Assembly: GCA_963843795.1 (NCBI GenBank)
Contig: CAWJLW010000006.1
Coordinates: forward strand, 620,001-684,000
Direction: 5' to 3'
Length of the DNA stretch: 64,000 nucleotides
From: an uncultured bacterium
GTDB taxonomy: Bacteria > Armatimonadota > Abditibacteriia > Abditibacteriales > Abditibacteriaceae
Shown: piece by piece, positions 19,144-35,874 of the stretch
Layout: every line of letters starts with the position of its first letter
Position numbering within the stretch: the stretch's first letter is position 1
Notes under the pieces: model-generated
Database searches by the model: none
What the model was told of the DNA's origin: nothing
What the model saw: the letters and a program-made list of their open reading frames with translations, nothing else
Program-made: the position numbers and the translations under genes

Positions 19144-19188
19144 AACAAAGCTGAAATTCTTCGATACAACCCCAAAAGCGACAATCCC

Positions 19189-19222
19189 AAAAGCGTTCTG
19201 CAAGTACTTGCAGAACGCTTTT
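19189..19222 (+). terminator. Terminator centred on GCAAGTACTTGC
   Basis: AAAAGCGTTCTGCAAGT|ACTTGCAGAACGCTTTT. Confidence 0.75.
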
Positions 19223-19420
19223 TAGGTTGTATTCCGAAATTATGGAGTGAGGCAAATCAGAAAATTTCATTGGTATTGTCAATTAAGTTTGATTTATAAA
19301 GAAAAAATCTAATTGTTGAATTTGAGAAATGTGTTAGCGCGCGAAGGTGATGGGGAATATAGAGAGCGCTAAATCGAGGCAAAGTTTGTTTCGTTTTGTG
19401 GAGAAGTAGAGGATGAGATT

Positions 19421-19903
19421 ATGAATTTGAGAAATGTGTGGCTGAGTGCTTTCGTCGTCCCCACCGTTTTGGCGGCGAGTGCGAGCTTTGCCTTGGCGGC
19501 TCCGGCGGTCACTTCGGAGTTGCAGGCGTTCAAGGTCGTCGAGAAAGAAGGCAAGTCGGCATTAGTGGCCGCTGATAAAGTGGCGCCGGGTGATGTGATC
19601 GAATATCGCGTTGAGTATCGCAACCAAAGCAAAAGTGCCGTCAAAGATTTGGATGCTACGCTGCCGATGCCCACAGGCTTAACGGTTTTGACCGATTCGC
19701 TGCGTCCGTTGCAGGCGCGCGCCAGCGTCGATGGGCGCACTTTCGGGCCGATGCCGCTGCGTCGTCGCGTGAAAAATGCCGATGGCACAGTTTCAATTGT
19801 GACGATTCCTGCCAGCCAGATTCGCTTTTTGCGTTGGACCGTGCCGCAGTTGGAAGCTGGAAAAAGCATTTCGTTTGCCGCGCGTGCGCGCATCAATCGC
19901 TAA
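19421..19903 (+). CDS. Small secreted single DUF11-like domain protein
   Basis: Signal peptide (ALA|AP); 'APGDVIEYRVEYRN', 'LPMPTG', 'LRWTVPQLEAGKSISFAARARIN*'. Confidence 0.85.
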   Translation: MNLRNVWLSAFVVPTVLAASASFALAAPAVTSELQAFKVVEKEGKSALVAADKVAPGDVIEYRVEYRNQSKSAVKDLDATLPMPTGLTVLTDSLRPLQARASVDGRTFGPMPLRRRVKNADGTVSIVTIPASQIRFLRWTVPQLEAGKSISFAARARINR

Positions 19904-20015
19904 CCGTCAATTTCGCAAAATGAGTCGCTGGTTTCTGAGGTCGTAATGCTGTTGCTATTTTGCAACGGTTGCTGAATCTTGCTGAATAATTGTGGGCCAT
20001 TTAGAGAGGAGATTT

Positions 20016-22757
20016 ATGTGGGATAAAACAGGCAGACGGCACGGCAACGTGTCGCTGCGTAGCGCTTCGCGCTTCGCTTTGACGCTGCAAGTACTTGCAG
20101 TGGTCTGGGCGGTTGCGATGGCGGCTCCGCAGGGTTGGATGTCGCGTGCGAGCGCTCAGGTGCCGCGCGCGGGAACTTCCATTGGCAACCAGGCTTCGGC
20201 CTCGTATACCGACGGTTCGGGCACACAGCGTACCGCGACTTCGAACCCGGTTACGACGATTGTGACTCAGGTCGCGGGCGTCGATCTCGAAGCCACACAA
20301 ACCGTGCGCGGCACCGCTGGCCAGCCAGTGTATTTTCCGCACACCGTAACCAATACTGGCAATGCGCCGGACATTTTTGGTCTCACGGCAACCGAAACTG
20401 CCGATGCAAGCAACATTCTTAATGCGGGCTTGTTGATTTTTCCCGACTCGAATCAAGACGGCCGACCCGATCCGGGCCAGCCAGCGATTACGCAATCACC
20501 GAATTTGCAGCCTGGCGAGACTTTTTCGTTCGTCGTCGCGGGCCAGATTCCCGATACCGCAACCGGCGCGCAGCCCGCGACGGTCAGCGTCACAGCGACT
20601 TCGACGGCACCCGCAGGCGCTCCGGGCACGCGCACCGATACCAACACCGATACGCTGCAATTGACGACCAATGCGGTCATCAACGTAACGAAGTCGGTGA
20701 GTTCCACGCAGGGGGCGCCGGGTAGCGGACCGTTCACCTATACCCTGAACTACACCAACAACGGTCGCATCGCCAGTGGGCCTTTGACCCTCACTGATAC
20801 CCTGCCCGCGGGCTTGACTTATGCGCCGGGCACCGGTTTCTGGAGCGTTGGCGGCACGCCGGGCACGCCCAACCTGACCGACGCACCGGGCGGAGATCCC
20901 GCTGGTATCAACTATTCGGTGACTGGCAACACGGTGACAGCGACGATTGCAAGCGTTAATCCGGGCGCCAGTTTTTATGTGTCGTTTGGTTTCAATGTGG
21001 CCGCTGGCACGTCACCAGGCGCGAAGAACAACACTGCGTCTTATACCTACGACGATGACAACAACGCGGGCACGCCAGTCATCGGCCCGGTCAACACCAA
21101 TACGGTTCCTTTCACGGTTACCGCAAGCGGTGGCGTAACGGGCACGGGCGATCCCGCTGCGGGCAACCAACCCGTGCCCCAGGGTGGACAAACCAACTTC
21201 GTTAACTCGTTTACTAATACCGGCACCGGTCCGGACACGTTCGACATCACTTATCCGGCAGTCGGTGCTGCGGGCAACAACTTTCCGATTGGCAGCGCTT
21301 TTCAATTATTTCGTGCCAGTGATGCGAGCGGCGCCAACATCGCGCCTTTGACCGATACCAACGGCAACGGCACGCCCGACACCGGCGTGCTGGCTGCGGG
21401 CGGGCAAGTCTTTATCGTGCTGCAAGTGCAACTGCCGCCCAACGCTTCGGGCACTGGCCCCTTCAACGTCAACAAAACCGCGACTTCGCCCACAACGGGC
21501 GCGACCGTGACTGTGACCGATGGCATTCCCAGCATTACACCTTCGGCGGTTGATTTGACTAACCGCGCTGGCTTAACCGTTGTCGGCGGTGGAACTGGCG
21601 TCGCGGGTGGTAACGGCCTTGGGCCGGAAGCCTCGCCGATTAACAACTACGCCCTTGCGCCGGGTGCCACGATTCGCATTCCGCTCAGCGTCACCAATGG
21701 CGGTACTTTGCCAGCCAACTATAACCTGTCGTATTCGACCACGACCGGCTTCGCTCCGCCGGTGTTGTTGCCAGCGGGCTACACGCTGAGCTTCGAGAAT
21801 CCGGCTGGCGGTGCCATCACCAACACGGGCAACGTTCCGGCTGGCGGCACGGTGAACTATGTTGCGGTGCTGACAGCTCCGGCTAACGCTGCGCCGATTA
21901 CTCAAGACATCTATTTCCGCATCGCCGAATCGAGCAACGACGGCACAGCGGGCAGCGGCGCAGTCGATGTGTTGCACGACGCTTTCACTGTCAACACGCA
22001 ACGCAGCATTTCGATTGATCCCAACAATAGCGGTCAGACTTTCCAGGGTGCTTCTGTCGTTTACTCGCACACGCTAACTAACAGTGGCAACCAAGCCGAA
22101 ACCGTGACGCTGAACGTCGCCAACAATCAGACCGGTTTTACAACCGTCAACTACATTGATGCTAATAACAGCGGCGTCATTGATGCGGGCGACACGGTGG
22201 TTCCAACAGGCGGCACGATTTCGGTTTCAGCTGGCGGCACGGTCAAAATTCTGACTCAGGTGTTCGCTCCTTCGGGCGCGGCTCCGGGCACAGTGAACGT
22301 GACCACGCTGACGGCGACCGGTGCAGGCCCTGGCGCGCCCACCAGCACAGCAACTGATACCACGACGATTGTGGCTGGCCAGTTGCGTTTGGTGAAAGAA
22401 CAGGCCGCCGATGTGAATAACGACGGCACGCCCGAAGGCGCTTATGGCACGTCCAATATCTCCGCCGCTCCGAACACGGGCGTGCGCTATCGCATCACGG
22501 TCACCAACATCGGCACGACGCAAGTCACCAATGTAGTCATCGCCGATACAACGCCGGCCTTCACCACTTACAACGCCGCGACCGGCGGCCCCAGCGCGAC
22601 TGGCCCAGCCTCCTTGCAGTTGCCCGATGGCAGCTTTCAGGCGGCCAACGTCGCACCGGCCAATAGCGGCACCGGAGCGTTGAACTTCACTCTGGCCACT
22701 CCGTTGTTGCCCGGCCAAAGCGTCATTGTGTACTTCGGTGTGCGCGTCAACGGTTAA
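20016..22757 (+). CDS. Secreted DUF11 repeat protein (candidate fibre shaft subunit)
   Basis: RBS GAGGAG; signal peptide; Thr/Gly/Asn-rich Ig-like repeats (HTVTNTGN), DxNxDG-type Ca-binding loops, one complete and one C-terminally truncated DUF11 domain. Confidence 0.88.
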   Translation: MWDKTGRRHGNVSLRSASRFALTLQVLAVVWAVAMAAPQGWMSRASAQVPRAGTSIGNQASASYTDGSGTQRTATSNPVTTIVTQVAGVDLEATQTVRGTAGQPVYFPHTVTNTGNAPDIFGLTATETADASNILNAGLLIFPDSNQDGRPDPGQPAITQSPNLQPGETFSFVVAGQIPDTATGAQPATVSVTATSTAPAGAPGTRTDTNTDTLQLTTNAVINVTKSVSSTQGAPGSGPFTYTLNYTNNGRIASGPLTLTDTLPAGLTYAPGTGFWSVGGTPGTPNLTDAPGGDPAGINYSVTGNTVTATIASVNPGASFYVSFGFNVAAGTSPGAKNNTASYTYDDDNNAGTPVIGPVNTNTVPFTVTASGGVTGTGDPAAGNQPVPQGGQTNFVNSFTNTGTGPDTFDITYPAVGAAGNNFPIGSAFQLFRASDASGANIAPLTDTNGNGTPDTGVLAAGGQVFIVLQVQLPPNASGTGPFNVNKTATSPTTGATVTVTDGIPSITPSAVDLTNRAGLTVVGGGTGVAGGNGLGPEASPINNYALAPGATIRIPLSVTNGGTLPANYNLSYSTTTGFAPPVLLPAGYTLSFENPAGGAITNTGNVPAGGTVNYVAVLTAPANAAPITQDIYFRIAESSNDGTAGSGAVDVLHDAFTVNTQRSISIDPNNSGQTFQGASVVYSHTLTNSGNQAETVTLNVANNQTGFTTVNYIDANNSGVIDAGDTVVPTGGTISVSAGGTVKILTQVFAPSGAAPGTVNVTTLTATGAGPGAPTSTATDTTTIVAGQLRLVKEQAADVNNDGTPEGAYGTSNISAAPNTGVRYRITVTNIGTTQVTNVVIADTTPAFTTYNAATGGPSATGPASLQLPDGSFQAANVAPANSGTGALNFTLATPLLPGQSVIVYFGVRVNG

Positions 22758-22997
22758 TTGCTGAGGCAAGTACTTGCCCCGCCTAAAACGTGGGGCAAGT
22801 ACTTGCAGTCCAACCCACAATTCCAGCCCCATCCAAAAGTTTCTCGTTCCTGGCGCGCATTCTCACTGCAATTATTCTTTTTCTCGCGCGTTCATCACAC
22901 AGAGAAACCGACTTGAAATTCAATAGGTTTGCGGCCCGCGCCGCGTAGCAAGTACTTGCTACACGTGCTTGCTACGTGCTCATACCGTTCGACTTCC

Positions 22998-25900
22998 ATG
23001 CGTGATTCATCATTCGCCCGTTCGCTTGTCTCGCCGCCGCGCTCGTTGAATTTGGCTGTGCGCTTTCTCATTGGCGCGTTGTGTTTGCTGTGTGCGCTGC
23101 AATCGGCGCGCGCAGCGGCACCCCTTGCGGGCACCTCGATTACCAACCGCGCCGAAGTGCGCTTTCGCGATGGCGCTTCGAATTTGCCGGTGCGTATTGA
23201 AACTAATGCTGTGACCGCCATTGTCAGTGCGATCGAAGGCATCGACCTCACCGCCGACTCGCAGCGCCGCGTCGCGCCGGGCGCGACGGTCAACTTGCCG
23301 CACCGCTTGACGAATTCCGGTAACACGCCCACAACCTATCGACTGCGTGTCACCAATAACAGTGGCGATGCTTTCGATTTGATCGATGTGCGTTTATATC
23401 GTGATATCAATGGCAACGGACGTTTCGATAGTGGCGAACCAGAGTTCACTGCGACGGATACTATCGCCCTTGATGCGGGCGAAACTGCTGATTTCGTTAT
23501 TAGTGGTCAAGTGCCGCCGACGGTTTCTCCCGACCGCAGCGCTTCCATCACTCTCAGCGCGGTTTCCACAAGCGATGGCCGCGTGACCGACAGTAATATG
23601 GATACGTTGACCGCGATTCAAGGCGTCGCGGTGACGATCTCGAAAAGTGTCACGCCCAGCAACGCTAAACAAGGCGAAAACCTCGATTACACACTTTTAG
23701 TTCAATCGCAGGGCAGCACTGCGCCCGCGTCTTATGCCGTTACCGTTAATGGTAACGCGCGCCGTTTAATTGTGGTTCGCGATACGGTTCCGGCCAATAC
23801 CAGCTTCGTGCAATGGCTCGAATCTCCCGCCGATGGTGTGCGCTTGTACCACCTCAACGGTACGCCCGAAGATTCCTATTTGTCATCGCCTCCGAGTGAG
23901 TTGAACCGTGTCGATGCGATTGCGCTGGGTTTGCCCGATTGGGGCACTGTGGGGCGTAGCGTGCAAATGCGCTTTCGCACACGCGTAAATGACAATGCCA
24001 GCGGCATCATCACTAACATTGCTCGCGTGCGTTATGGCGACCCGAACGGCAGTGGCGCGACGGTGACTGCCGACGCGATTTCCAACGCTACTGCGGTTCC
24101 TCTGGCCGAACAACCGCCAACAATCGGTTTTTTCGGTGGCCCGACTTACAATGTGCCCGCCACGCAAACTGCCATCGACACACCGCTGTTCGTGCAGGGA
24201 AACGCCGCGGCTTGCAACCAGGATCCGACGCGCGTTGAACGCAGCACGATTACCATTGCTTCGCGCGATACCGGCGATAGTGAAGTAGTGGTCGCAATTG
24301 AAACCGGTCCCAATACCGGACTTTTTCGCCTGCAGACTCCATTGCCCACACGCGATAAATCTAAATCGACCTTAGCGCCCAACGATGGCATTCTGACGAC
24401 TGCGCCGCGCGACTTGTTGACTGCGACCATCGCTTCATGCGATAACAACAGCGTTTCGGCAGCGATTGATGTCACGCCTTTTGGCGTGGTTTTCGATGCG
24501 CGCACCAATGCGCCCGTTTCCGGCGCGCGCGTAACGATTATTGATGTCACCGGCGTCACCAACGGCGGGCGGCGCGGTGAAGCCGCAATTGTCACCGGCC
24601 CGGATGGACGACCGCAACCCGCGATTGTGGTCAGCGGCAGCGATGGCACTTTTCGTTTTCCGGCCCTGCCGCCGGGCACTTATCGGGTGGCTGTCGAAGC
24701 GCCCAACGGCTACACCTTTCCTTCGCAGATTCCGCCGTCCCTGATTTCGCCCGACCGCATTATCGAACCCAACGGTTCTTATGGACGCGATTTCACTATC
24801 GCGAGCGGCGGTGGCGCGCTCGCTTTCGATGTGCCGCTCGATGGCGCGGCACCCGGCGGCTTATTTCTGGAAAAAGAAGCCTCGACACGCATTGTCGAAG
24901 TCGGCGATTTTCTGGAATATCGCATTCGCGTGCGCAACAACAGCGGCAGCGGTTTGCAGCAAGTTACGCTGAGCGACCGTTTGCCGCGCGGCTTTTCCTA
25001 TGTGCGCGGCAGTGCCAAAATCGGTGCATCCGATGGCGATGCACGCCAATACAAATCTCTGGCCGACCCCGAAGGTGGCGCTGGTCCGCTGCTGGCCTTT
25101 GCGCTGGGAGATTTGAAGGTCGACGACCAAGCCACGCTAATCTATCGCGTGCGCGTCGGCGCGGGCAGCACGCTCAATGAGCGCGCTACAAACTCGGTGC
25201 AGGCGACAGCCACTTCACCTTTTGGCTCTGTCACTTCCAATAACGCAACCGCCGAAGTGCGTATTGTTTCGGGCGTTCTCACCACACGCGGCGTGATTAT
25301 CGGCAAAGTTTTCATCGACGCCAATCGCAATCGTATTCAAGACGATGGCGAAATCGGCATCCCCGGCGTGCGCATTATTTTGGAAGACGGCACTTATGCC
25401 GTGACCGATAGCGAAGGCAAATATTCGTTGTATGGTTTGGCCGCGCGCACGCACGTCGTGAAACTTGATACGACAACGATGCCGGGCGGTTCGATTTTGG
25501 AAGCTCTCACGCAACGCCATGCGGGCAATGGTTCCAGCACTTTCGCCGAACTTAAAGCCGCAGAATTATATAAAGCCAACTTCGCTATTATCGACGCCGC
25601 GCCCGAAGTCCTGAAAGAAGTCGCCAAGCGCCGTCTGGTCGCCGAACGCGCGGGCGATGAAGCCAATGGTTTGGTCAATAATCAGCTGGCCATCGAAGGC
25701 GCGCGTGAAACCCTCAGCCCCGACCGTCGTGGTTTGGCTTCGTCAGGCACGGTGCAAACCGCGAGCAGAGGCACCACGTTAAGCAGTGCACCCGGCGGCA
25801 CTTTAGCCGCACCCGCTCCTTCGGGCACCAGCGATTTAGATAACACTTCGCTGTTCAACGGCATCAACACGCCGGGCGCTTCGGCGGTCACTTCGTCCAA

Positions 25901-28900
25901 TGGCGTTGCTGAAACCGGCCAGCGTCGCAACGCCGGTCGCCCCGTCGCGCCCAATGGCGGCGGCCCCATTGTGGCGACACAAGTCACCGAAAACGCGCCG
26001 CAGGTACTTGCACAAGCTCCCGCGCCTACCACTGAAACGCAAACTGCGACTTCCGGTGATTTGAACGCGCAGGACACGCCGCAAGTACCTGCACCCGCTG
26101 CGACAGCGCCGATTGCTGCGACAGAAAACAATACGGGTACTTCCGCGATTGAAAATGTGCCGCAAGTACTTGCCGCCCCCAACGGTGGCGGCATCGAACT
26201 TTCGACTGGCACGCTGGACGGCGATAACGGCGCGGTCATCACTAACGGCGGCGAACTGGTGCGCCGCCAGAGTCAGGAACAAATTCCCGAAGGCGCGAAC
26301 GAGCAGCCGATTCGCGAACCGATTGGCGCCAATAATTCCAATTTGCCGGTCGCGCCCGTTCGCATCGCGCCCAAAGTCAATTTCGACGAGTTGATGCCAA
26401 CGCTGACGCCCGAAGCCGGTTTTCTCGATTTGCGCGATGGCGACACACTGGCAAATTCTCAAGTCACTTTACGCATCAAAGGCTCGAATGCAGGCGCTTT
26501 GGGCCTCAGTGTAAACGGCAAAGTGGTGAACAAAGAGCGCATCGGCACGCGCAGCGTGCTGGAAAGCAAAGGCGTGGCAGCGTTTGAATACGTCGGCGTG
26601 CAATTGAATCCTGGCCCGAACGAGCTTTTGGTCGAACAATTCGATAACTTCGGCAACGTGCGCAGCAGCCAAAAAATCACCGTAATTGCTCCCGGCAAAC
26701 TGGGCGCGCTGCGCGTTTCTCTGCCCAAACAAGCCTACGCCGATGGCCGCAGTTTGACGCAGGTCGAAGTGCAAGTCGTTGATGATCGTGGCACACCCGT
26801 TTCTTCGCGCACCGCATTGACGTTGGAGACTTCATTGGGCGCGTGGCAAGTCATCGACAACAATCCGGTCGAAGCTGGTGTGCAGGTTTTCGTCGAAGGT
26901 GGGCGCGCTACATTCCCGCTTTTGGCGCCGCTCGAACCGGGCGATTCCACAGTGCGCGTCACTTCGGGCGCGCTGGGCGCAACGGCGCATCTGGCGTTCG
27001 TGCCGGAACTACGACCTTTGTTGGGCGCGGGCTTGATTGAAGGGCGCGTGGGTAGTTTCAAAGTCAAAGATGCCAAAGTCGCGGGTGGCAACGCTTTCGA
27101 TGAACAATTGCGCTCTTTTTCGGGTGGCGATAGCGGCGATGCGCAAGGCCGCGCGGCGATGTATTTCAAAGGCCGCATTCAGGGCAAGAACTTATTGACT
27201 TTGCGTTACGATACGCAGAGTGATACCGAAAACGAACGTTTGTTCCGTGACATTCAGCCGGACGAATTTTATCCAGTTTATGGCGATTCTTCGCTCAAAG
27301 GCTTCGACGCGCAATCCACTTCGCGCCTTTATGTGCGTGTTGACCGCGACCGTTCTTATGTGTTGTATGGCGATTACTCGACATCTTCGCAAACCTTAGC
27401 GCGCTCGCTGGGCGAATACCAGCGTTCTCTGACGGGCGGCAAAACGCACATCGAAAACGAGAAGTTTTCGTTCAACGCTTTTGCGGCACATGACAACACG
27501 CGCCAAATCGTGGAAGAAATTCCCGCGCAAGGTTTGTCTGGCCCGTATCGGTTGTCGAACTTTGGTCTGGTGCGGCAAAGCGAGCGCGTGGAAATTATCG
27601 TGCGCGACCGCAATCAACCTTCGGTGATTTTGCAAATCACGCCGCAGACGCGCTTCAGCGACTACACGCTGGACGGCCTGACCGATGGCATTTTGTTCCG
27701 CGCGCCGATTCCATCGCGTGATGCCAATTTGAATCCGATTTTCATCCGCGTCACTTACGAAGTCGAGCAGGGTGGCCCGCGCTTTTTCGTCGGCGGTCTG
27801 GACGGACAGGTGAAATTGGGCAAAAACTTTTCTCTCGGCGCGTCGGTTAGTACCGACCGCAATCAGGAAGACCCGTTCGATTTGCGCGCGCTGAACGCAA
27901 TTTATCGCATCAGTCCTAATACTTTGATCATTGCCGAAGCGGCTTCGACCGACCGCAAATCGGTTGGCAGCGGCAATGCGCAGCGTTTTGAACTTCTGCA
28001 CGAAGGCTCGCGCTTGCAGGCGCGCTTGTTCGCCGGTCGCGCCAGCGAAAACTTTTCCAATCCATCTTCGGTATTGACCCAAGGACGCGAAGAGTTGGCG
28101 GCGACTGCGGCTTATCGTTTGAGCGCGACATCGCAACTGCGCGCTGAAGCCTTGCGCACCAAAGACACCCAGCGCGGCGGCACGCGACAAGGCGTGCAAT
28201 TGTCCTATGAGCGCGCTTTGAGCGACGCGCTGCGCTTGGAACTGGGCATTCGCAACACTAAAGAAGATTTTTCCCAGAACACGCCCAATGCCGATGTTAC
28301 GCCAGTGAATTTCACTTCGCTGCGCGCGCGCTTGACCGGACAAGTGCCCAGTGTGCGCGATTTGAGCGTATTCACCGAATACGAGCGCGCACTCAGCGGC
28401 GATGGCCAGGCGCTTTCGGTCGGCGGGCAATATCAGTTGGGCAATCGCACGCGCTTGTATGCGGTTCACGAATTGATTTCCAGCTTGGAAGGACGCTACG
28501 CGCTCAACGATTTTCAAACCCATAACTCGACTTTGTTCGGTATTGATACCGATTACATGAAGAACGGGCGTTTGTTCTCGGAATACCGCATTCGCGATGC
28601 GATTGATGGCCGTCAGGCCGAAGCCGCATTGGGTTTGCGCAACTTGTGGAATTTGGGGCGCGGCGTGCGTTTGGGCACTTCGTTCGAGCGCGTGACCGAC
28701 TTTTCAAATCGCGCGCGGCCTCAACAGTGGCTTGTTGCCAAATAATGGCGGCACGGCGGTTTCGCTTTCGCTGGAATATGTGCCCAACGACCTGTTCAAG
28801 GCGACCGGACGTTTGGAAGGGCGCAGCGGGCAAGACCAGAATTCGTATCTCGGTTCGTTTGGCGCGGCTTACAAAGTCGGCAGCGGCTTCACGGTTTTGG

Positions 28901-29766
28901 CGCGCGATATTTTCTCGATTGTCAACACCAAAACCACCGGTTTGGTTGACCAAACCACGCTGGGCACTTATCGCAACCAGCACCGCTTTCAGATCGGCGG
29001 CGCGTATCGTCCCGTCCGCAACGACCGTTGGAATGCTTTAGCCAAATACGAATTTCGCACTGGCGAAGACCCCGACACCACGTTTAGCGGAGCTTTGCGC
29101 CGTCGCGTGCATATCGTTTCCACCGATTTCAATTATCAGCCCAGTGCTGCGACGACGTTACGTTTGCACTACGCGTGGCGCAAGTCATTTCTTGATGGCG
29201 ATTCGCTCAATTCCGGCTCCTCCGCTCATCTATTAAGCGGACGCATTCAGCGCGAATTGGGTCGCCGTTTTGAACTCGATTTGCATGGCGGGCGCTTGTT
29301 CGACCGCAGCGGCGGGCAATGGGGCGCGGGCGTTGAGTTGGCTTATTTAATGGGCCGCGATATGCAGTTGGGCTTGGGTTACAACATTCTGGGTTTCCGC
29401 GATGATGAACTAACGATAGACGAGTATTCGCGGCGCGGCGCTTATCTACGCTTGCGCTACAAGTTTGATGAAGATTTGTTGCTGCGCGGAATGCGCTCGG
29501 AAGATCGTCTGGCAAATTCTCCCAAAGGTCATGGCATCGATGCCAACGCGTTGAATAACACGCCGCTGATTGGTAGCGAAGGTTCGCCATTGAATGGTCG
29601 TCCTTATAACGATGGTGCGCGCGTTCCGGTTGCTACCAGCGATTTGCCTTTGGGTTTGCCAACCGGCAATTCGCCTGCTGCCTTGGATGCGTTGCCGGGC
29701 AGCGATGATATTGTGCAGGACGAAGCGACGGCTGAAACCGAGGTTCAAACCCAGGACGTGAAATAA
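22998..29766 (+). CDS. Very large DUF11/SdrD-like protein with C-terminal outer-membrane beta-barrel; split by a frameshift near 28710-28718
   Basis: ORFs 22929-28745 and 28732-29766 overlap. DUF11 domains, 'IIGKVFIDANRNRIQDDGEIGIPGVRI..TDSEGKYS', 'YPVYGDSS', then alternating amphipathic strands ending 'LGYNILGFRDDEL..GAYLRLRYKFDE'. Confidence 0.8.
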
Positions 29767-29848
29767 AGGGTGCAAGTACTTGCTAAGACTGTGCAAGTAC
29801 TTGCAGGCGCAAAATCAATCTTTCAATAGCCATACTCGCCGGAACATT

Positions 29849-32800
29849 ATGACTGAGACAATTTCTTCCATTCTTTCGCGCCGCGCCTTTGCATTGTGGT
29901 TTTTATTATGCTGCGTTTTGGCCAGTGCGCTGGCTAGTGCGCGTCCGGCACACGCGCAATTTCCTGATGATGGGAAATTTTATCAGGTGCGCCAAGTCGC
30001 CATAACGGGCGGCAATGCATCGCAATTGTATGTTCTCAATCGCAATACAACCACATACAGCGCTACGGCTGTGGGCGCGACAACGACTGCGGGCACCGTG
30101 TTGAACGCATTGGCATTCAACAACAGCGACCGTGGTATTTATGCGATAGAACTGGGCACCAACAATCTTTACCGTTATAGCTTGCTGGGACCGACTTTAG
30201 TTGGCTCCATTCCCAATTTGCCCAGCCAGACTTACAACTCGGGCGCTATTGATAACGGTGGTGGTCGACGCAATTATTATGTTGCCGTTTTGACCACCAG
30301 CACAATTTACCGCATCAACAACATCGATTTGGCTACGGCTGGTGTAGGTGGCGCGGTGACGGGCACTACGGTCGATACGATTCCGCTTTCGTTGCAAATT
30401 AATACCGGCGACTTCGCTGTCAGTCCAGTGGATAGCAAACTTTACGCGATTAGTGCGCAATCAAACCCACCGGTTCTCAGCATCATCGACGTCAACAGTG
30501 CGGCGGCTACCAAGCCGGTCACACAGCTCAATATTTCCGGCGTTCCCACAACGGCTTCGACGATCGGTTCGGTGTTCTTCGACATCGCTGGTAATTTGTA
30601 TGCTTACTCGAACAACGGCTTTTACTACAACATTAACCTCACAACCGGTGCGGCCACGCAACTGTCGACCGCTCCTACAACTTCGCAAAGTGACGGCGCC
30701 AGCAACGCTTATTTTCGTATTCCTTTCACGCTGACTAAAAGCGTCTCCAGCATCGTGCGTCCCAATCCGACGACTTACGACATCTCGTTTTCGGTTTTCT
30801 TGCGTAACGATGCCGCTACCAGTGCGGCTACCAACGTGCAGATTACAGAAAATCTCGACCGCGCCTTTACTTCTGGCAATCCGACTTTGAGCATTCTCAA
30901 CGCGCCTACCAACACTGCGGGTACAGCGCTGCCCACTAATGCGGCTTTTACCGGACGGCAGGCTGGCGACACGCGCTTATTAGTCGGCAACGGAACTTTA
31001 GGAGCCGGACAAAGCACCACGGTTTCTTTCACCGTGCGCGCGGTCTATCCGAACCTAGCATCGGTGCCACAGCAACAAAGCAACACGGTTTACGCTTCCT
31101 CCACTTCAACGGTGAATCCGCAGGGCTATAACGCTGGTTTTACTTTTCCCAATGACACGCCCATTCCGCCACCCGACTTGATCGGATTCGAAATTTCACC
31201 GCCCGCGCCCATTAATTTCCGCTCGATTAATGGTCGGGTTTTTGAAGACGTGAACTACGGTGGCGGCGCGGGCCGTGCGTTTGCGGCCGCAACCGGTGCC
31301 GCAGGCGTTCCCGCGGGCACGCGCGTCGAACTTTACACAGTGAGTGGCACGACCGCGACTTTTGCCGCCGCAACCACAACCGCTGCCGATGGAACTTATG
31401 CTTTCAATAACCGCGACGCCGGTGATTATTTGGTGCGTATTCCCAACGCAGGCGTGGTTTCCACGCGGCCCGTCACGACCGCAACCGGAACGCCCCTCGC
31501 TGTGCAAACATTTCGGGTTAATAACGGCGTGGCCGATGGTGCTCAAGTCGGCGGCAATGCTCCGACTCAGACCGACGCTACCAATGGCGGCGCGGGCACG
31601 ACCATTAACACCACAACCGGCGCGATTAGTGGCGGCGGCGTCAGTGGAACGGTTGCACAAACCATTGGGCGCCTCACGCTGGGCAACGCCGATGCGGGTA
31701 ACCTCGATTTCGGTTTCAATTTCGATACCATTGTCAACACCAACAATTTGGGTCAAGGCTCGCTGCGCCAGTTCATTGTCAACTCGAACCGTCTGGCTAA
31801 CGCGGGTCTAGCTCAGGTCGGGCAAACTGCGGGCGTCGAAAGCACGATTTTTATGGTGCCCGCCGCTCAACTGACGAGTGGAGTGGCGCGCATTACAGTG
31901 ACAACCACCAATTTGCCAGCAATTACCGACACCTTTACTTCGATTAACGGTGCCACGCAAACCGCTGGCATTGGCAATACCAACACGGCAATTCTGGGAA
32001 CCGGCGGCACCGTTGGCATTGATGCCCTGACGTTGAGCACGGTGCAAGGGCCGGAAGTCGAAATCGTCGATGGCGATGGGCGCTCAATTGGTTTGACTGT
32101 GGCAGCCAACGATGCCACAGTGCGTGGTCTGGCGATTTATGGTTTTGGCAACACGGCCAATGACGACGCCAACGCCAACATTTTAATCGGCGATTTCTTG
32201 CGCGCGCTGGTCGAGAATTCGATTGTCGGCAGTCCGGCGCCAACTTTCAGCGATCCGGGTGCAGCCGCACGTTCGGGCGGCGATAACATTCGTTCGGTCG
32301 GTGGCGATAACGGTACCATTCGCAACAACCTGATTGGTTTCAGTGCGGGCAAAGGTGTGGGTCTGGAAAACGGTTCTACAGGTTGGTCGGTTACCAACAA
32401 CGAAGTGCGTGGCAACGCTATAGGCAATCCGAGCTTAGACGGAATTGACATCGAAAACGCTGGTTCGGGCAATGCGACCGTGAGTGGCAACCTGTTCATC
32501 AATAATGGCGGGGTTGGCATCGATGGTTATCAGGGCGGCGGCGGCAATAGCATCGTCAACAACACGGTCAACGGCAACGGACGCGGTCTGGGCACCGTCC
32601 CTGAAACCGCCGGTGTGCGCTTATACAGCAGCAACAACACGGTTGATCGCAACATCATCTTCGATAATGGCGGCGCGGGCATTATGGTGACCGACGGTGG
32701 TCAAAACAATCTCATCACGCGCAACTCGATTTATGCTAATGGTTCGCGCACCAGCCCCGAACAAATCGGCATCGACCTGCTTGAAACCGGTCAGGATGTC

Positions 32801-34723
32801 ACCACCGGCACACCGGTGGCCGGACGCGGCTATGTCACGCCCAACGATCTGGGTGATGCCGATGCGGGCGCCAATGGTCTGCTCAATTTTCCCGTTATCG
32901 AAAGCGCGATACTCGACACTGCGAATGGCGTGGTCGTCATCAAAGGCTGGGCGAGACCTGGCGCGACGGTCGAGTTCTTCGTGGCCGCGCCCGATGCGTC
33001 TGGCTTTGGCGAAGGCCAAACTTTTCTGCAAACCCGCGTTGAAGGCTCCGCGCAAGACGCCGACGCCACCACAAGTACTTATGTCGGCAGTGGTCTGACA
33101 CCGCCGCAGCCCAATGTCGGGACGGATAACACCAACCGCTTTGAATTCCGCGTTCCGATTGGTACTTTGAGTTTAGGCTCGATTCTCACTTCGACCGCGA
33201 CTTTGGCCAACAACACTTCGGAGTTTTCCAATAATGCCACCGTCGCCAATCCCACCGCTCCCGGCGCGCGCATTTCGGGCACGGTTTATCTCGATGCCAA
33301 CGCCAATGCCAACCGTGACTCTGGCGAGCAGGGCACGGGCGAAACCGGCTTGTTCGTCAAAGCCGTGCCGCTGGATACAGCGGGCAACCCAACCGGCCCC
33401 GCCGTCGCTGCGGTCGCTGTTGATCCTGCGACTGGCAGTTATGTTTTCACCAGTTTGAACGCAGGTCGTTATCGTCTGGTTTTAGACGACAACAGCACGC
33501 TCACCGATGTGACCCCACTTAATCCCAGCACGCGCGGTTACATCGGCACCGAAGCCGCGCTGGGCACGCGCGAGGCAACAATCACCGCCGCGCCCAATCA
33601 AGCGCCCGAAAACGGCGCGCAGAACTTTGGCCTGTTCCGCGGCTCGCGCGTGACCGGCACAGTTTTCAACGACAACGGCTTAGGTGGCGGCATCAGCAGC
33701 GATGGTGTCAGGCAGGCTGGCGAAAAAGGCATCGCAGGCGTAACGATCAATGCGCAGAACGCTGCCAACGCAGTTGTCGCCACGACGCAAACCGACGCCG
33801 ATGGCAACTACGTTTTGTTCGTGCCCGCTGGCCCGATTCGCATCGCCGAAATCAACGCGCCCACTTTTCTTTCCACCGGCGCGACTATCGGCAACAGCAG
33901 CGGTACTTACACGCGCAGTAGCGATAGCATCGTCTTCACTGCAACTGCGGGCACATCCTACGCGGCCTTGAATTTCGGCGATATTCAAAACGCGACTTTC
34001 ACCAATGACAACGTGCAAGTACTTGCACCGGGCGCTTCGACCTTTTTTCCGCACGTTTTCACCGCTTACTCGCCCGGCACCGTGGCTTTCGCCACGAACG
34101 GCACATCGGCCCCAACGGGCTTGAATTTCACGCGCGTCATTTTGCGCGATACCAACGGCAACGGCGTTCTCGATGGCACCGAAAGCAACGGCGCGCCCGT
34201 CACTTCAATCACGATTACTCAAGCCGATATCGACGCGGGCGGCGGCAGCGCACAGATTTCCTTGCTGATTCAAGAATTCGCGCCCGCTAATGCCGCTCCC
34301 GGCGCGCAAGACACCGTCGGAATTCGCGCGACTTACGACCCGACCGAAAACGGCGGCATTGCACCTCTTACCAATGTCGTCATTACGCGCCAGGACATCG
34401 CCAAAGTGCAGCAAAACGGTGATTTGCAATTGTTCAAAACCGTCGATCTCGCGACCGCGCGCCCCGGCGATAACGTCGTCTACACGATTCGCTTCCGTAA
34501 CACCGGCACCAACCCGCTCACCCAATTAGTCGTCGCCGACAAAGTGCCCGCGTTCACCACTTATCAAAGCCAAAGCGTCGGTCCGCTGCCCGCTGGTCTC
34601 ACCGCACCGACTTTCACCGCACCCGCCACGCCTCAAAGCGGCGTCTTCCAATGGACATTCGGCGGCGCTCTCAATCCTGGCGCAGAAGGCACCGTTTCGT
34701 TCACCGTCCGCGTCAATAATTGA
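29849..34723 (+). CDS. Large secreted adhesin-like protein: propeller-like N-terminus, SdrD-like domains, right-handed beta-helix, terminal DUF11
   Basis: Signal peptide (AHA|QF); 'INGRVFEDVNYGGGAG', 'VNTNNLGQGSLRQFI', parallel beta-helix Asn repeats, C-terminal 'FKTVD..PGDNVVYTIRFRN..ADKVP..SFTVRVNN*'. Confidence 0.88.
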   Translation: MTETISSILSRRAFALWFLLCCVLASALASARPAHAQFPDDGKFYQVRQVAITGGNASQLYVLNRNTTTYSATAVGATTTAGTVLNALAFNNSDRGIYAIELGTNNLYRYSLLGPTLVGSIPNLPSQTYNSGAIDNGGGRRNYYVAVLTTSTIYRINNIDLATAGVGGAVTGTTVDTIPLSLQINTGDFAVSPVDSKLYAISAQSNPPVLSIIDVNSAAATKPVTQLNISGVPTTASTIGSVFFDIAGNLYAYSNNGFYYNINLTTGAATQLSTAPTTSQSDGASNAYFRIPFTLTKSVSSIVRPNPTTYDISFSVFLRNDAATSAATNVQITENLDRAFTSGNPTLSILNAPTNTAGTALPTNAAFTGRQAGDTRLLVGNGTLGAGQSTTVSFTVRAVYPNLASVPQQQSNTVYASSTSTVNPQGYNAGFTFPNDTPIPPPDLIGFEISPPAPINFRSINGRVFEDVNYGGGAGRAFAAATGAAGVPAGTRVELYTVSGTTATFAAATTTAADGTYAFNNRDAGDYLVRIPNAGVVSTRPVTTATGTPLAVQTFRVNNGVADGAQVGGNAPTQTDATNGGAGTTINTTTGAISGGGVSGTVAQTIGRLTLGNADAGNLDFGFNFDTIVNTNNLGQGSLRQFIVNSNRLANAGLAQVGQTAGVESTIFMVPAAQLTSGVARITVTTTNLPAITDTFTSINGATQTAGIGNTNTAILGTGGTVGIDALTLSTVQGPEVEIVDGDGRSIGLTVAANDATVRGLAIYGFGNTANDDANANILIGDFLRALVENSIVGSPAPTFSDPGAAARSGGDNIRSVGGDNGTIRNNLIGFSAGKGVGLENGSTGWSVTNNEVRGNAIGNPSLDGIDIENAGSGNATVSGNLFINNGGVGIDGYQGGGGNSIVNNTVNGNGRGLGTVPETAGVRLYSSNNTVDRNIIFDNGGAGIMVTDGGQNNLITRNSIYANGSRTSPEQIGIDLLETGQDVTTGTPVAGRGYVTPNDLGDADAGANGLLNFPVIESAILDTANGVVVIKGWARPGATVEFFVAAPDASGFGEGQTFLQTRVEGSAQDADATTSTYVGSGLTPPQPNVGTDNTNRFEFRVPIGTLSLGSILTSTATLANNTSEFSNNATVANPTAPGARISGTVYLDANANANRDSGEQGTGETGLFVKAVPLDTAGNPTGPAVAAVAVDPATGSYVFTSLNAGRYRLVLDDNSTLTDVTPLNPSTRGYIGTEAALGTREATITAAPNQAPENGAQNFGLFRGSRVTGTVFNDNGLGGGISSDGVRQAGEKGIAGVTINAQNAANAVVATTQTDADGNYVLFVPAGPIRIAEINAPTFLSTGATIGNSSGTYTRSSDSIVFTATAGTSYAALNFGDIQNATFTNDNVQVLAPGASTFFPHVFTAYSPGTVAFATNGTSAPTGLNFTRVILRDTNGNGVLDGTESNGAPVTSITITQADIDAGGGSAQISLLIQEFAPANAAPGAQDTVGIRATYDPTENGGIAPLTNVVITRQDIAKVQQNGDLQLFKTVDLATARPGDNVVYTIRFRNTGTNPLTQLVVADKVPAFTTYQSQSVGPLPAGLTAPTFTAPATPQSGVFQWTFGGALNPGAEGTVSFTVRVNN

Positions 34724-34737
34724 TTCGACCAAACATG

Positions 34738-34769
34738 AAAGCGCTCTGCAAGTACTTGCAGAGCGCTTT
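34738..34769. terminator. Bidirectional terminator centred on GCAAGTACTTGC
   Basis: AAAGCGCTCTGCAAGT|ACTTGCAGAGCGCTTT between convergent genes. Confidence 0.78.
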
Positions 34770-34839
34770 TTGTGTTCAACGTCGAAAGTTTATTTAGATT
34801 GACTCAAAAATGAGAATTGACTTGTTTGAAATCTTCCCT

Positions 34840-35703
34840 TTAAAGAGTCTTGTACCATTCAGCATCAACGCTGACGTCTTCGACGACTTGCGTTGTAATT
34901 CCAAGACCTAATTCTTTTAATTTTTCAGCAAGCTGATCGCCATCCACCAGATCAATAGGTGGAGCGCCGTCGCGGATTGCCTCTTTTACAGCATCCCGCG
35001 TAAATGTGCCAGTTGTGACAAACAATCCTTTATCTGCACGACCAACCATTGCGCCACGAAAATCGCGTATATCGCTTGCTCTCACAGAACCTTGATATTT
35101 TTTGCACTGAAAAATTACATGGAAGCTTAGTAGACCATTGATACGAGCGATGCCTTTGCCATCAATGCCGCCGTCACCACTTCTACCCGTAACCTCGACT
35201 TGAACAAAACCTGATTCGCGCAACAGCCTTTTTACAAGCCGTTCAAATGCAGAAGGATCAATTTCTTGAGTCAAAATATGATGAAGTTGCTCTCTCCAAG
35301 TGCGCGATTCTTCAGGTAGTTCTTCGTCATTAGCACTATTACTTTTTTCTGATGTGCGATTGGGACGCGCTTTCTTATTCATTTCGCGTACGGCGCGAAC
35401 CACTTCGCGGTAATCGACTTTTTCTATATGGCGTTTGTCTGGAACGATTGCCCACACACCGCGACTGGAGTTTTCTAAAACACCATATTTCTTTAGATAG
35501 GTGCGTGCCCATGCAAGCCGATACTCAACTTCGGTCTGATTACTGTTATCTGGGTTATGAGAAATGCTCAAGACTTCTTCGGAGAATTTCAAATTTTCCG
35601 TGACTTTTTCGTAAATTTCTTCGATTGAGCCAGAGCCACCAAGCTGCTTTAGCGCTTGAAACAGAGGATTTATAAGAAGATCATATTGCGGAACTTGATT
35701 CAT
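34840..35703 (-). CDS. mrr: Mrr-type (type IV, modification-dependent) restriction endonuclease
   Basis: Mrr N-terminal 'YRLAWARTYLKK.G.LENSSRGVW'; catalytic 'FERLV..TGRSGDGGIDG..QCKKY..IRDFRG..GLFVTTGTFT..IDLVDG'; visibly more AT-rich than its neighbours. Confidence 0.9.
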   Translation of the reverse strand: MNQVPQYDLLINPLFQALKQLGGSGSIEEIYEKVTENLKFSEEVLSISHNPDNSNQTEVEYRLAWARTYLKKYGVLENSSRGVWAIVPDKRHIEKVDYREVVRAVREMNKKARPNRTSEKSNSANDEELPEESRTWREQLHHILTQEIDPSAFERLVKRLLRESGFVQVEVTGRSGDGGIDGKGIARINGLLSFHVIFQCKKYQGSVRASDIRDFRGAMVGRADKGLFVTTGTFTRDAVKEAIRDGAPPIDLVDGDQLAEKLKELGLGITTQVVEDVSVDAEWYKTL

Positions 35704-35874
35704 TTGATGTATTTTGCCCCATATCAACCGAGCAGTCGAGTAAGAGTTGAATTGGGTAGGCGGTGAAAGAATCGTGTGTCATTGGGGTGTTTATCTATTC
35801 TGCAAGTACTTGCAGAAGTGTTCTGACACCTGAGTGCGTTGTGAGGGGCGTGCGAAAAACTTAAACTGGCGCTC

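Follow-up and report, generated by a model that had tools for sequence, protein, structure and literature searches.

How might a bacterium with two membranes use four secreted proteins that hold, between them, unmatched portions of one and the same domain? The question is raised by a locus in a 64,000-nucleotide stretch of DNA (here the window: positions 620,001 to 684,000 of contig CAWJLW010000006.1, assembly GCA_963843795.1) from an uncultured member of the Abditibacteriaceae (Armatimonadota). Four neighbouring genes, all on the forward strand, each encode a protein with a signal peptide; they are designated A (the open reading frame, ORF, at 19421), B (the shaft gene, 20016), C (the barrel gene, from 22929) and D (the tip gene, 29849). 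The source genome (92% complete) carries an Omp85/BamA gene scoring above cut-off; therefore, the host has an outer membrane. A preliminary description of the locus had proposed that these proteins share out complementary pieces of a DUF11 domain and join through them into a covalently linked pilus. The analysis presented here supports that assignment of donors and acceptors and the interpretation placed upon it. We estimate at about 0.7 the probability that the operon builds a covalent surface fibre of composition C-(B)n-D by donation of the split domain.

The DUF11 profile PF01345 matched B, C and D above its cut-off and A below it (18.4 bits). In the same family profile scans C and D also matched SdrD_B and carboxypeptidase-regulatory Ig domains, and D a beta-helix. 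B opens with a signal peptide and a donor hairpin, continues with six domains, of which five are Ig-like and one is an intact CLIPPER (DUF11) domain, and closes with a C-terminal acceptor. A 150-position hidden Markov model (HMM), built from 149 B homologues, query excluded, and covering their intact internal domain alone, was compared to the protein ends, with E-values calculated for single sequences. The C-termini of B and D matched positions 13-113 (E 5e-14) and 2-113 (E 3e-13), respectively, while the N-terminus of B matched positions 119-150 (E 3e-8) and that of C positions 116-148 (E 5e-6). Protein A matched positions 16-59 (E 3e-6), and the N-terminus of D, serving as control, gave no match to this HMM (1.9 bits, E 0.012). 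Hence, as had been claimed, the mature N-termini of B and C correspond to the final two DUF11 strands, and the C-termini of B and D stop where these strands should start; the motifs and residues quoted in support (Asn 20187, Lys 22395, Asn 23145 and Lys 34436) all translate correctly. Judged from these sequence matches, the domain is split in complementary fashion between termini, and not by chance. Only the internal copies unite Lys, Asp and Asn in one chain's domain, the terminal copies being devoid of the Asn-bearing strands.

An AlphaFold2 model of mature B (87 sequences; predicted local distance difference test, pLDDT, 91.2; predicted template modelling score 0.61) agrees with this division. 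The intact domain, last two strands included, superposes on CnaA-type isopeptide domains (BcpA 3KPT, Z 14.7; EbpB, 13.8; SpaD, 13.2) and on the CLIPPER structure 9IFR (Z 13.7; root-mean-square deviation, rmsd, 2.2; 122 residues aligned). Among the outcomes that the preliminary description had named as speaking against it are a C-terminal domain complete by itself and a donor folding into its neighbour. In the model, the last domain lacks the final two strands, and the donor (residues 1-40, pLDDT 91-93) forms an ordered hairpin ahead of a domain that already has its seven strands. The idea that the donor is a piece of the neighbouring domain was therefore rejected. The sequence of B had no match among solved structures at E 1, and Foldseek with the whole model returned generic multi-Ig chains only.

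The most direct evidence that the two halves make one domain comes from natural fusions. Two metagenomic proteins, P0121 and P0122, are tandem fusions of B-like units, with 2-5 units per long chain. At their junctions (four in P0121, one in P0122) the acceptor sequence passes straight into a donor, and the internal-domain HMM matches through to position 149-150; the match starts at 14-15 in three of the P0121 junctions and at 76 in one. Both fused forms end in a repeat that we take to be dockerin-like, which suggests a barrel-independent anchoring of the same stalk.

Both the split point and the reactive residues turned out to be conserved, two properties on which the preliminary description had staked its case. 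Among the 120 best B matches (own protein included), 113 end two residues past the last strand and the remaining 7 within 1-6 residues; the donor Asn is present in 119 and the acceptor Lys and Asp in all 120. In a larger set of 248 full-length sequences (the query and 247 homologues of 780-1,010 amino acids, from which shorter, longer and fused matches were dropped), 242 keep all three residues, although identity among B homologues ranges from 33 to 57%. The terminal triad is as strictly kept as the internal one (Lys in 242, Asp in 246, Asn in 243). The division of roles, in which C has just a donor, D and A just an acceptor and B the two together, holds across homologues as well. N-terminal donors were found in 0 of 30 A, 19 of 21 B, 19 of 23 C and 0 of 19 D proteins, and C-terminal acceptors in 23 of 30, 21 of 21, 0 of 23 and 19 of 19, respectively. 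Of the misses, seven are A proteins below threshold and two are divergent C donors still recognisable by eye; the others go back to an ORF called too short, a fragment and, in two cases, the barrel half of a split C gene. Loops of the form Dx[DN]xDG (DSNQDG, DTNGNG, DANNSG, DVNNDG), many of whose Asp and Gly residues are nearly invariant, recur in B (20016-22757) and D (29849-34723) and may be calcium-binding sites.

Protein A, which had been described as a chaperone or cap, aligns to the B acceptor with an hhalign probability of 97%; in the ESM Atlas it falls in unnamed or DUF11 clusters only. The site of the catalytic Asp is occupied by Leu in 27, Ile in 2 and Ala in 1 of the 30 A sequences, none of which retains Asp. 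A complex of A with the B donor was predicted with a score of 0.85, the best of three controls reaching 0.08; at least 98% of contacts are shared between runs and the pLDDT of the partners is at least 82. Among solved pairs, 116 of 157 attained the mark used for this score, as did 2 of 215 mismatched ones; these counts are only rough for the alignments used here, and the score itself was possibly helped by the likeness of A to solved CnaA domains. In the predicted complex the donor strands pair with residues 3-11 and 47-57 of A (its first and third strands), and the donor Asn adjoins the Asp-equivalent site. As to the acceptor Lys, hhalign left the first strand of A unaligned; in the contact list Ala36 lies within the donor interface and Lys38 outside it, and a Lys occurs two places further on in 25 of the 30 sequences. 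The contacts and the hydrophobic pattern designate Ala36 as the probable Lys site, so that A probably lacks this residue too. The missing catalytic Asp and the predicted binding of the donor make A a probable non-covalent guard, a candidate chaperone that could hold the donor without locking it. The helper role originally suggested thus stands, in a sharpened form: A, incapable of cross-linking, would protect the donor, whereas the chaperones of chaperone-usher pili fill the acceptor groove. Alternatively, A might be a cap standing in for D.

In this assembly C reads as two ORFs, 22929-28745 being frameshifted and continuing as 28732-29766. It was treated as one gene because a homologue spans both pieces (its C-terminal 1,000 amino acids match them with 52% and 48% identity), because C is a single ORF (1,949-2,159 amino acids) in 16 of 17 related loci, with none broken at this place, and because one base at 28712 is missing from two contigs (depth 2-3), which stem from different soil runs of a single study. 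The notion that 28732-29766 is a separate gene was discarded, as homologues run through it. The extra base is probably an assembly error, a strain-level mutation being the alternative. The passenger part of C is Ig-like, with two intact DUF11 domains, SdrD_B and invasin-like domains, and precedes a giant C-terminal beta-barrel. The barrel fold was modelled on the last 1,000 amino acids of an intact C homologue (31 alignment rows, pLDDT 73.5). The model contains an invasin/intimin-like Ig domain, seven long strands, a small inserted beta-domain (approximately residues 295-384) and 31 more strands, predicting a barrel of about 38 strands; ushers have 24. In its place after the first strands, the inserted domain is reminiscent of the usher plug. 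Structural matches were led by AlgE (Z 15.3, rmsd 7.8, 251 aligned) and included the Deinococcus SlpA anchor (Z 14.6, rmsd 11.9), FimD (Z 13.9, rmsd 12.4) and PapC (Z 13.3, rmsd 5.9), the latter two at 8-9% identity. All are generic barrel matches, with identities of at most 11%, large rmsd and Foldseek template modelling scores of 0.16-0.23. No solved barrel was closely matched by the model, a result that neither makes the fold new nor sets it apart from known large outer-membrane translocons such as SprA, SlpA, LptD and the ushers. Under the scheme set out below, the barrel would probably serve for export and assembly.

D homologues vary from 647 to 2,277 amino acids and have unrelated N-terminal domains. 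Of 19 tips, 16 retain both Lys and Asp in the acceptor, and three related 647-residue tips have neither. Three genomes (G096, G161 and G197; loci L034-L039) each contain two complete operons, one with a 647-residue tip without the Lys/Asp pair and the other with a tip of more than 2,200 residues that has it.

Gene order, the conservation of which had been put forward as a check, is A-B-C-D in 14 of 18 loci, selected for strong B or C matches in genomes that are kin. Of the four incomplete loci, one shows B-C-D at a stretch edge, one A-B-C where a contig ends, and the last two, from a single genome, have A-B and C-D in different places. B was matched in 39 of 201 genomes of a phylum sample (E 0.001), about half of the matches being full length, and the barrel in 35 of 401; a locus search with a single sequence found 1 weak locus among 90 stretches. 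At E <=1e-30, B is matched by 481 clusters (50% identity), the relatives bearing names from Armatimonadota, Verrucomicrobiota, Pseudomonadota and Deinococcota; close named homologues include Armatimonadetes. Thermus, Acinetobacter and Rhodobacterales also have relatives, and cyanobacterial plasmids carry relatives of the barrel. The operon of Thermus thermophilus HB8, a safe and tractable strain, resides on plasmid pTT27 (TTH_RS10905-10925), with C in two genes; a Pacificitalea manganoxidans plasmid has A, B and C, no D being seen there, and an Acinetobacter haemolyticus plasmid has a fragmented B and an extra OmpA gene. In three of another five loci the order is B-A-C1-C2-D, separate genes encoding the passenger and the barrel of C. 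In Thermus, where C is likewise split, the passenger half with the donor (TTH_RS11750, L052:14713-17406) ends in a short segment with a Lys and Asp-Pro spacing that recalls a reduced acceptor; it gave no match to the acceptor profile.

What sequences and models show is where the domain is split, that its halves are complementary and in places fused, that residues and gene order are conserved, and that A has no catalytic Asp; from this we infer polymerisation, an intermolecular isopeptide bond, export through the barrel and a chaperone role for A. The fibre would be built by donor-hairpin complementation of the split CLIPPER (DUF11, CnaA-type) domain. Once exported by Sec, B and C would each present the two-strand donor as a free N-terminus, and each donor would complete the C-terminal acceptor of another subunit. 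The distribution of halves would therefore place barrel C at one end, (B)n in between and tip D at the other end, the variable N-terminal domains of D lying outermost. In the completed domain the acceptor Lys, aided by the acceptor Asp, would form an isopeptide bond with the donor Asn, yielding a covalent chain without sortase; between two copies of B these residues would be Lys794, Asp844 and Asn58. A, as a catalytically dead acceptor, would hold donors reversibly and prevent subunits from joining in the periplasm. By the simplest route, growth would occur at the base: D would enter first, each incoming B would place its donor in the open acceptor prior to Lys-Asn bonding, and the donor of C would close the last acceptor, terminating growth and tethering the fibre.

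Several observations weigh against this scheme. C is frameshifted in the assembly; should the strain truly carry the extra base, its system would be disrupted. The barrel model, which derives from a homologue, has moderate confidence (pLDDT 73.5, 31 sequences). With 3 of 19 tips devoid of Lys and Asp, covalent locking cannot be universal. Two indirect tests speak neither for nor against the scheme: codon bias, taken as a proxy for abundance among 2,628 long ORFs, places B at the 80th percentile, C at the 75th, A at the 67th and D at the 53rd, and mutual information between donor and acceptor (248 sequences) gave no signal, nor did the positive control (hairpin versus intact core). Finally, the scheme offers no account of how an empty acceptor stays folded ahead of the arrival of the donor.

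The same joints could also make a fixed short stalk, that is, a 1:1:1 (or few-B) modular adhesin of C, B and D cut into exportable pieces. P0121 and P0122, single long adhesin-like chains of 2-5 units, would suit such a design, as would the seven domains already present in one B, and the CLIPPER survey finds these domains usually in adhesin stalks (PMC12617251). We nevertheless regard a fixed stalk as unlikely: B has both halves, the fusions show a B-type donor completing a B-type acceptor, the sequence sets no limit on B copies, and a conserved dead acceptor such as A is better explained by the risk of uncontrolled polymerisation. A polymer might, on the other hand, be held as in a chaperone-usher pilus by donor exchange without a covalent lock, the triad being kept for structural reasons only. 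Consistent with this are the three tips without Lys and Asp, certain DUF11 domains without the bond (PMC12617251) and BsaA N35A oligomers that withstand unheated sodium dodecyl sulphate (10.1101/2024.11.04.621531). Yet the triad persists in 242 of 248 B proteins across 33-57% identity, and it is A, not expected to cross-link, that has lost its Asp in 30 of 30 cases; a fibre held by donor exchange alone seems highly improbable.

Lastly, the chain could hang from C into the periplasm, or form a surface lattice or rings, with the barrel as anchor or porin. In outer-membrane barrel proteins the N-terminal domains frequently lie in the periplasm, some homologous operons add an OmpA-family gene, and the SlpA anchor is among the barrel matches. 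Against an envelope scaffold, the highly variable adhesin-like domains of D are typical of an outward-exposed tip, and the modelled barrel, with its inserted plug-like domain, is far beyond anchor size; we hold this arrangement to be very unlikely.

Returning to the covalent fibre, we lean towards seeing in this operon a class of diderm pili that is widespread yet undescribed, having its own secretion barrel of about 38 strands, a covalent chain from barrel to exchangeable tip, and a dead socket as plug chaperone, together with seven-domain subunits, two-strand donation and autocatalytic intermolecular isopeptide bonds. If this is true, a covalent, sortase-free route is added to the few pilus assembly pathways known in two-membrane bacteria, and many genes annotated as "DUF11 domain-containing" acquire a testable role. 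The outer membrane would contain a very large pore that may pass folded multi-domain chains. The fibre would amount to a naturally occurring polymer of the SpyTag/SpyCatcher kind, and the split domain would also provide a natural isopeptide pair usable for protein ligation.

Table 1. Coordinates, within the window, of the operon, its domains and the iterated palindrome.
Feature	Position	Strand	Remarks
A	19421..19903	+	160-residue secreted lone acceptor; Leu at catalytic Asp site; Lys probably absent too
B	20016..22757	+	913-residue shaft subunit; ribosome-binding site ahead of ATG 20016
B donor hairpin	20166..20273	+	last two CLIPPER strands; Asn 20187
B intact internal CLIPPER/DUF11 domain	20667..21125	+	triad Lys 20691, Asp 20796, Asn 21030
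B C-terminal acceptor	22371..22757	+	Lys 22395, Asp 22545; stops ahead of last two strands
C	22929..29766	+	one gene, ~2,270 codons; likely ATG near 23001; two ORFs through frameshift near 28712
C donor hairpin	23124..23225	+	Asn 23145
C outer-membrane barrel (predicted)	27020..29480 (approximate limits)	+	from homologue model, sequence 48-52% identical
Extra base in C	28712..28712	+	relative to two other contigs
D	29849..34723	+	1,624-residue tip/adhesin candidate; no donor
D C-terminal acceptor	34415..34723	+	Lys 34436, Asp 34538
Palindrome GCAAGTACTTGC, examples	19200, 20088, 22794, 22948, 26162, 29793, 34015, 34748		

Both flanks of the operon carry perfect or near-perfect hairpins around the palindrome GCAAGTACTTGC followed by T runs (19181-19230 and 34738-34770), resembling terminators in sequence. 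Immediately 3' of the operon lies a gene (34840-35727) whose product, from its motifs, is presumably a restriction endonuclease-like protein of the Mrr type; the G+C content falls there from about 0.57 to 0.50. The 12-bp palindrome itself occurs 2,567 times in the 4.3-Mb source genome, against 0.25 copies expected by base composition, and 43 times in the window. It leans towards intergenic sequence, since 1,087 of 2,563 non-overlapping copies lie within long ORFs, which cover 83% of the genome. Thirty relatives have 0-3 copies and the sole same-genus genome (63% complete) has none; the repeat is a lineage-specific expansion, which we presume to be akin to highly iterated palindromes or uptake sequences.

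No description of the operon was found in the open literature, a body of text from which closed journals are largely missing and whose supplements could mention split DUF11 domains. In design the operon parallels chaperone-usher pili (Fim, Pap), which share head-to-tail completion, an acceptor-only tip adhesin, a small periplasmic helper and a barrel with an inserted domain. Completion of the fold by the N-terminal extension of a partner is found here at the level of sequence and model, with two strands and not one. The operon further differs in its hairpin donor, its seven-domain shaft, a helper that is an acceptor predicted to bind the donor, a terminator donor fused to the barrel, and a predicted covalent lock. 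None of the five ORFs matched a PapD-family chaperone or a FimD/PapC-family usher in Pfam or NCBIfam at E 0.01.

The chemistry has other precedents, compared here from the accessible portions of the papers cited. In the CLIPPER structure 9IFR, Lys715 is bonded to Asn806 with Asp748 (PMC12617251). The intact domain of B shares this CnaA-type fold and triad, and CLIPPER domains are found in Gram-negative surface proteins; yet the known bond lies within one chain, whereas the terminal copies here are split between chains. The survey treats the bond as intramolecular only, and the words "donor" and "operon" do not occur in its main text. BsaA of Clostridium perfringens forms an intermolecular bond between N35 and K74 with E56 (10.1101/2024.11.04.621531), through donor-strand exchange followed by an autocatalytic, sortase-free reaction; in the present operon the bond is a prediction. 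Both systems have Asn on the donor and Lys plus an acidic residue on the acceptor (here in 242 of 248 B proteins). BsaA differs in its single-domain TasA-family subunit, SipW peptidase, Glu catalyst, monoderm host and lack of an outer-membrane barrel, and triads of its type occur mostly in Clostridia (10.1101/2024.11.04.621531). In this operon no TasA-family Pfam match and no SipW gene were found, and the flanking ORFs are unrelated.

In the Sulfolobus thread, Asn57 of Saci_0406 bonds the N-terminal amine of subunit n+2 (PMC9715654). This archaeal system shares donor-strand complementation, the intermolecular isopeptide bond and an adjoining donor-only cap gene, and differs in having another fold and no barrel. 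The Enterococcus Elr/WxL pilus (10.64898/2026.10.17.759780) likewise combines shaft, variable tip, terminator and chaperone in one operon with donor exchange; it differs in its WxL fold, membrane chaperone and sortase anchor and is reported only from Bacillota. Sortase-dependent pili belong to monoderm hosts, whereas this host has Omp85; none of A, B and D carries a C-terminal LPxTG sorting signal, each finishing on a beta-strand, and no sortase was found among the ORFs. Two further candidates were set aside: TLP-1 fibrils, with a single-strand donor from subunit n+4 and, in the part of the paper seen, no DUF (PMC11494351), and the Litorilinea grappling hook, a single 6,596-residue chain with 49 DUF11 domains, the accessible text of which contains neither "donor" nor "isopeptide" (10.1101/2025.08.19.671072). 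Being without PapD, usher, TasA, SipW and sortase features, the operon is a member of none of the systems compared: it is chaperone-usher-like in its logic, and akin to BsaA and the archaeal thread in its chemistry.

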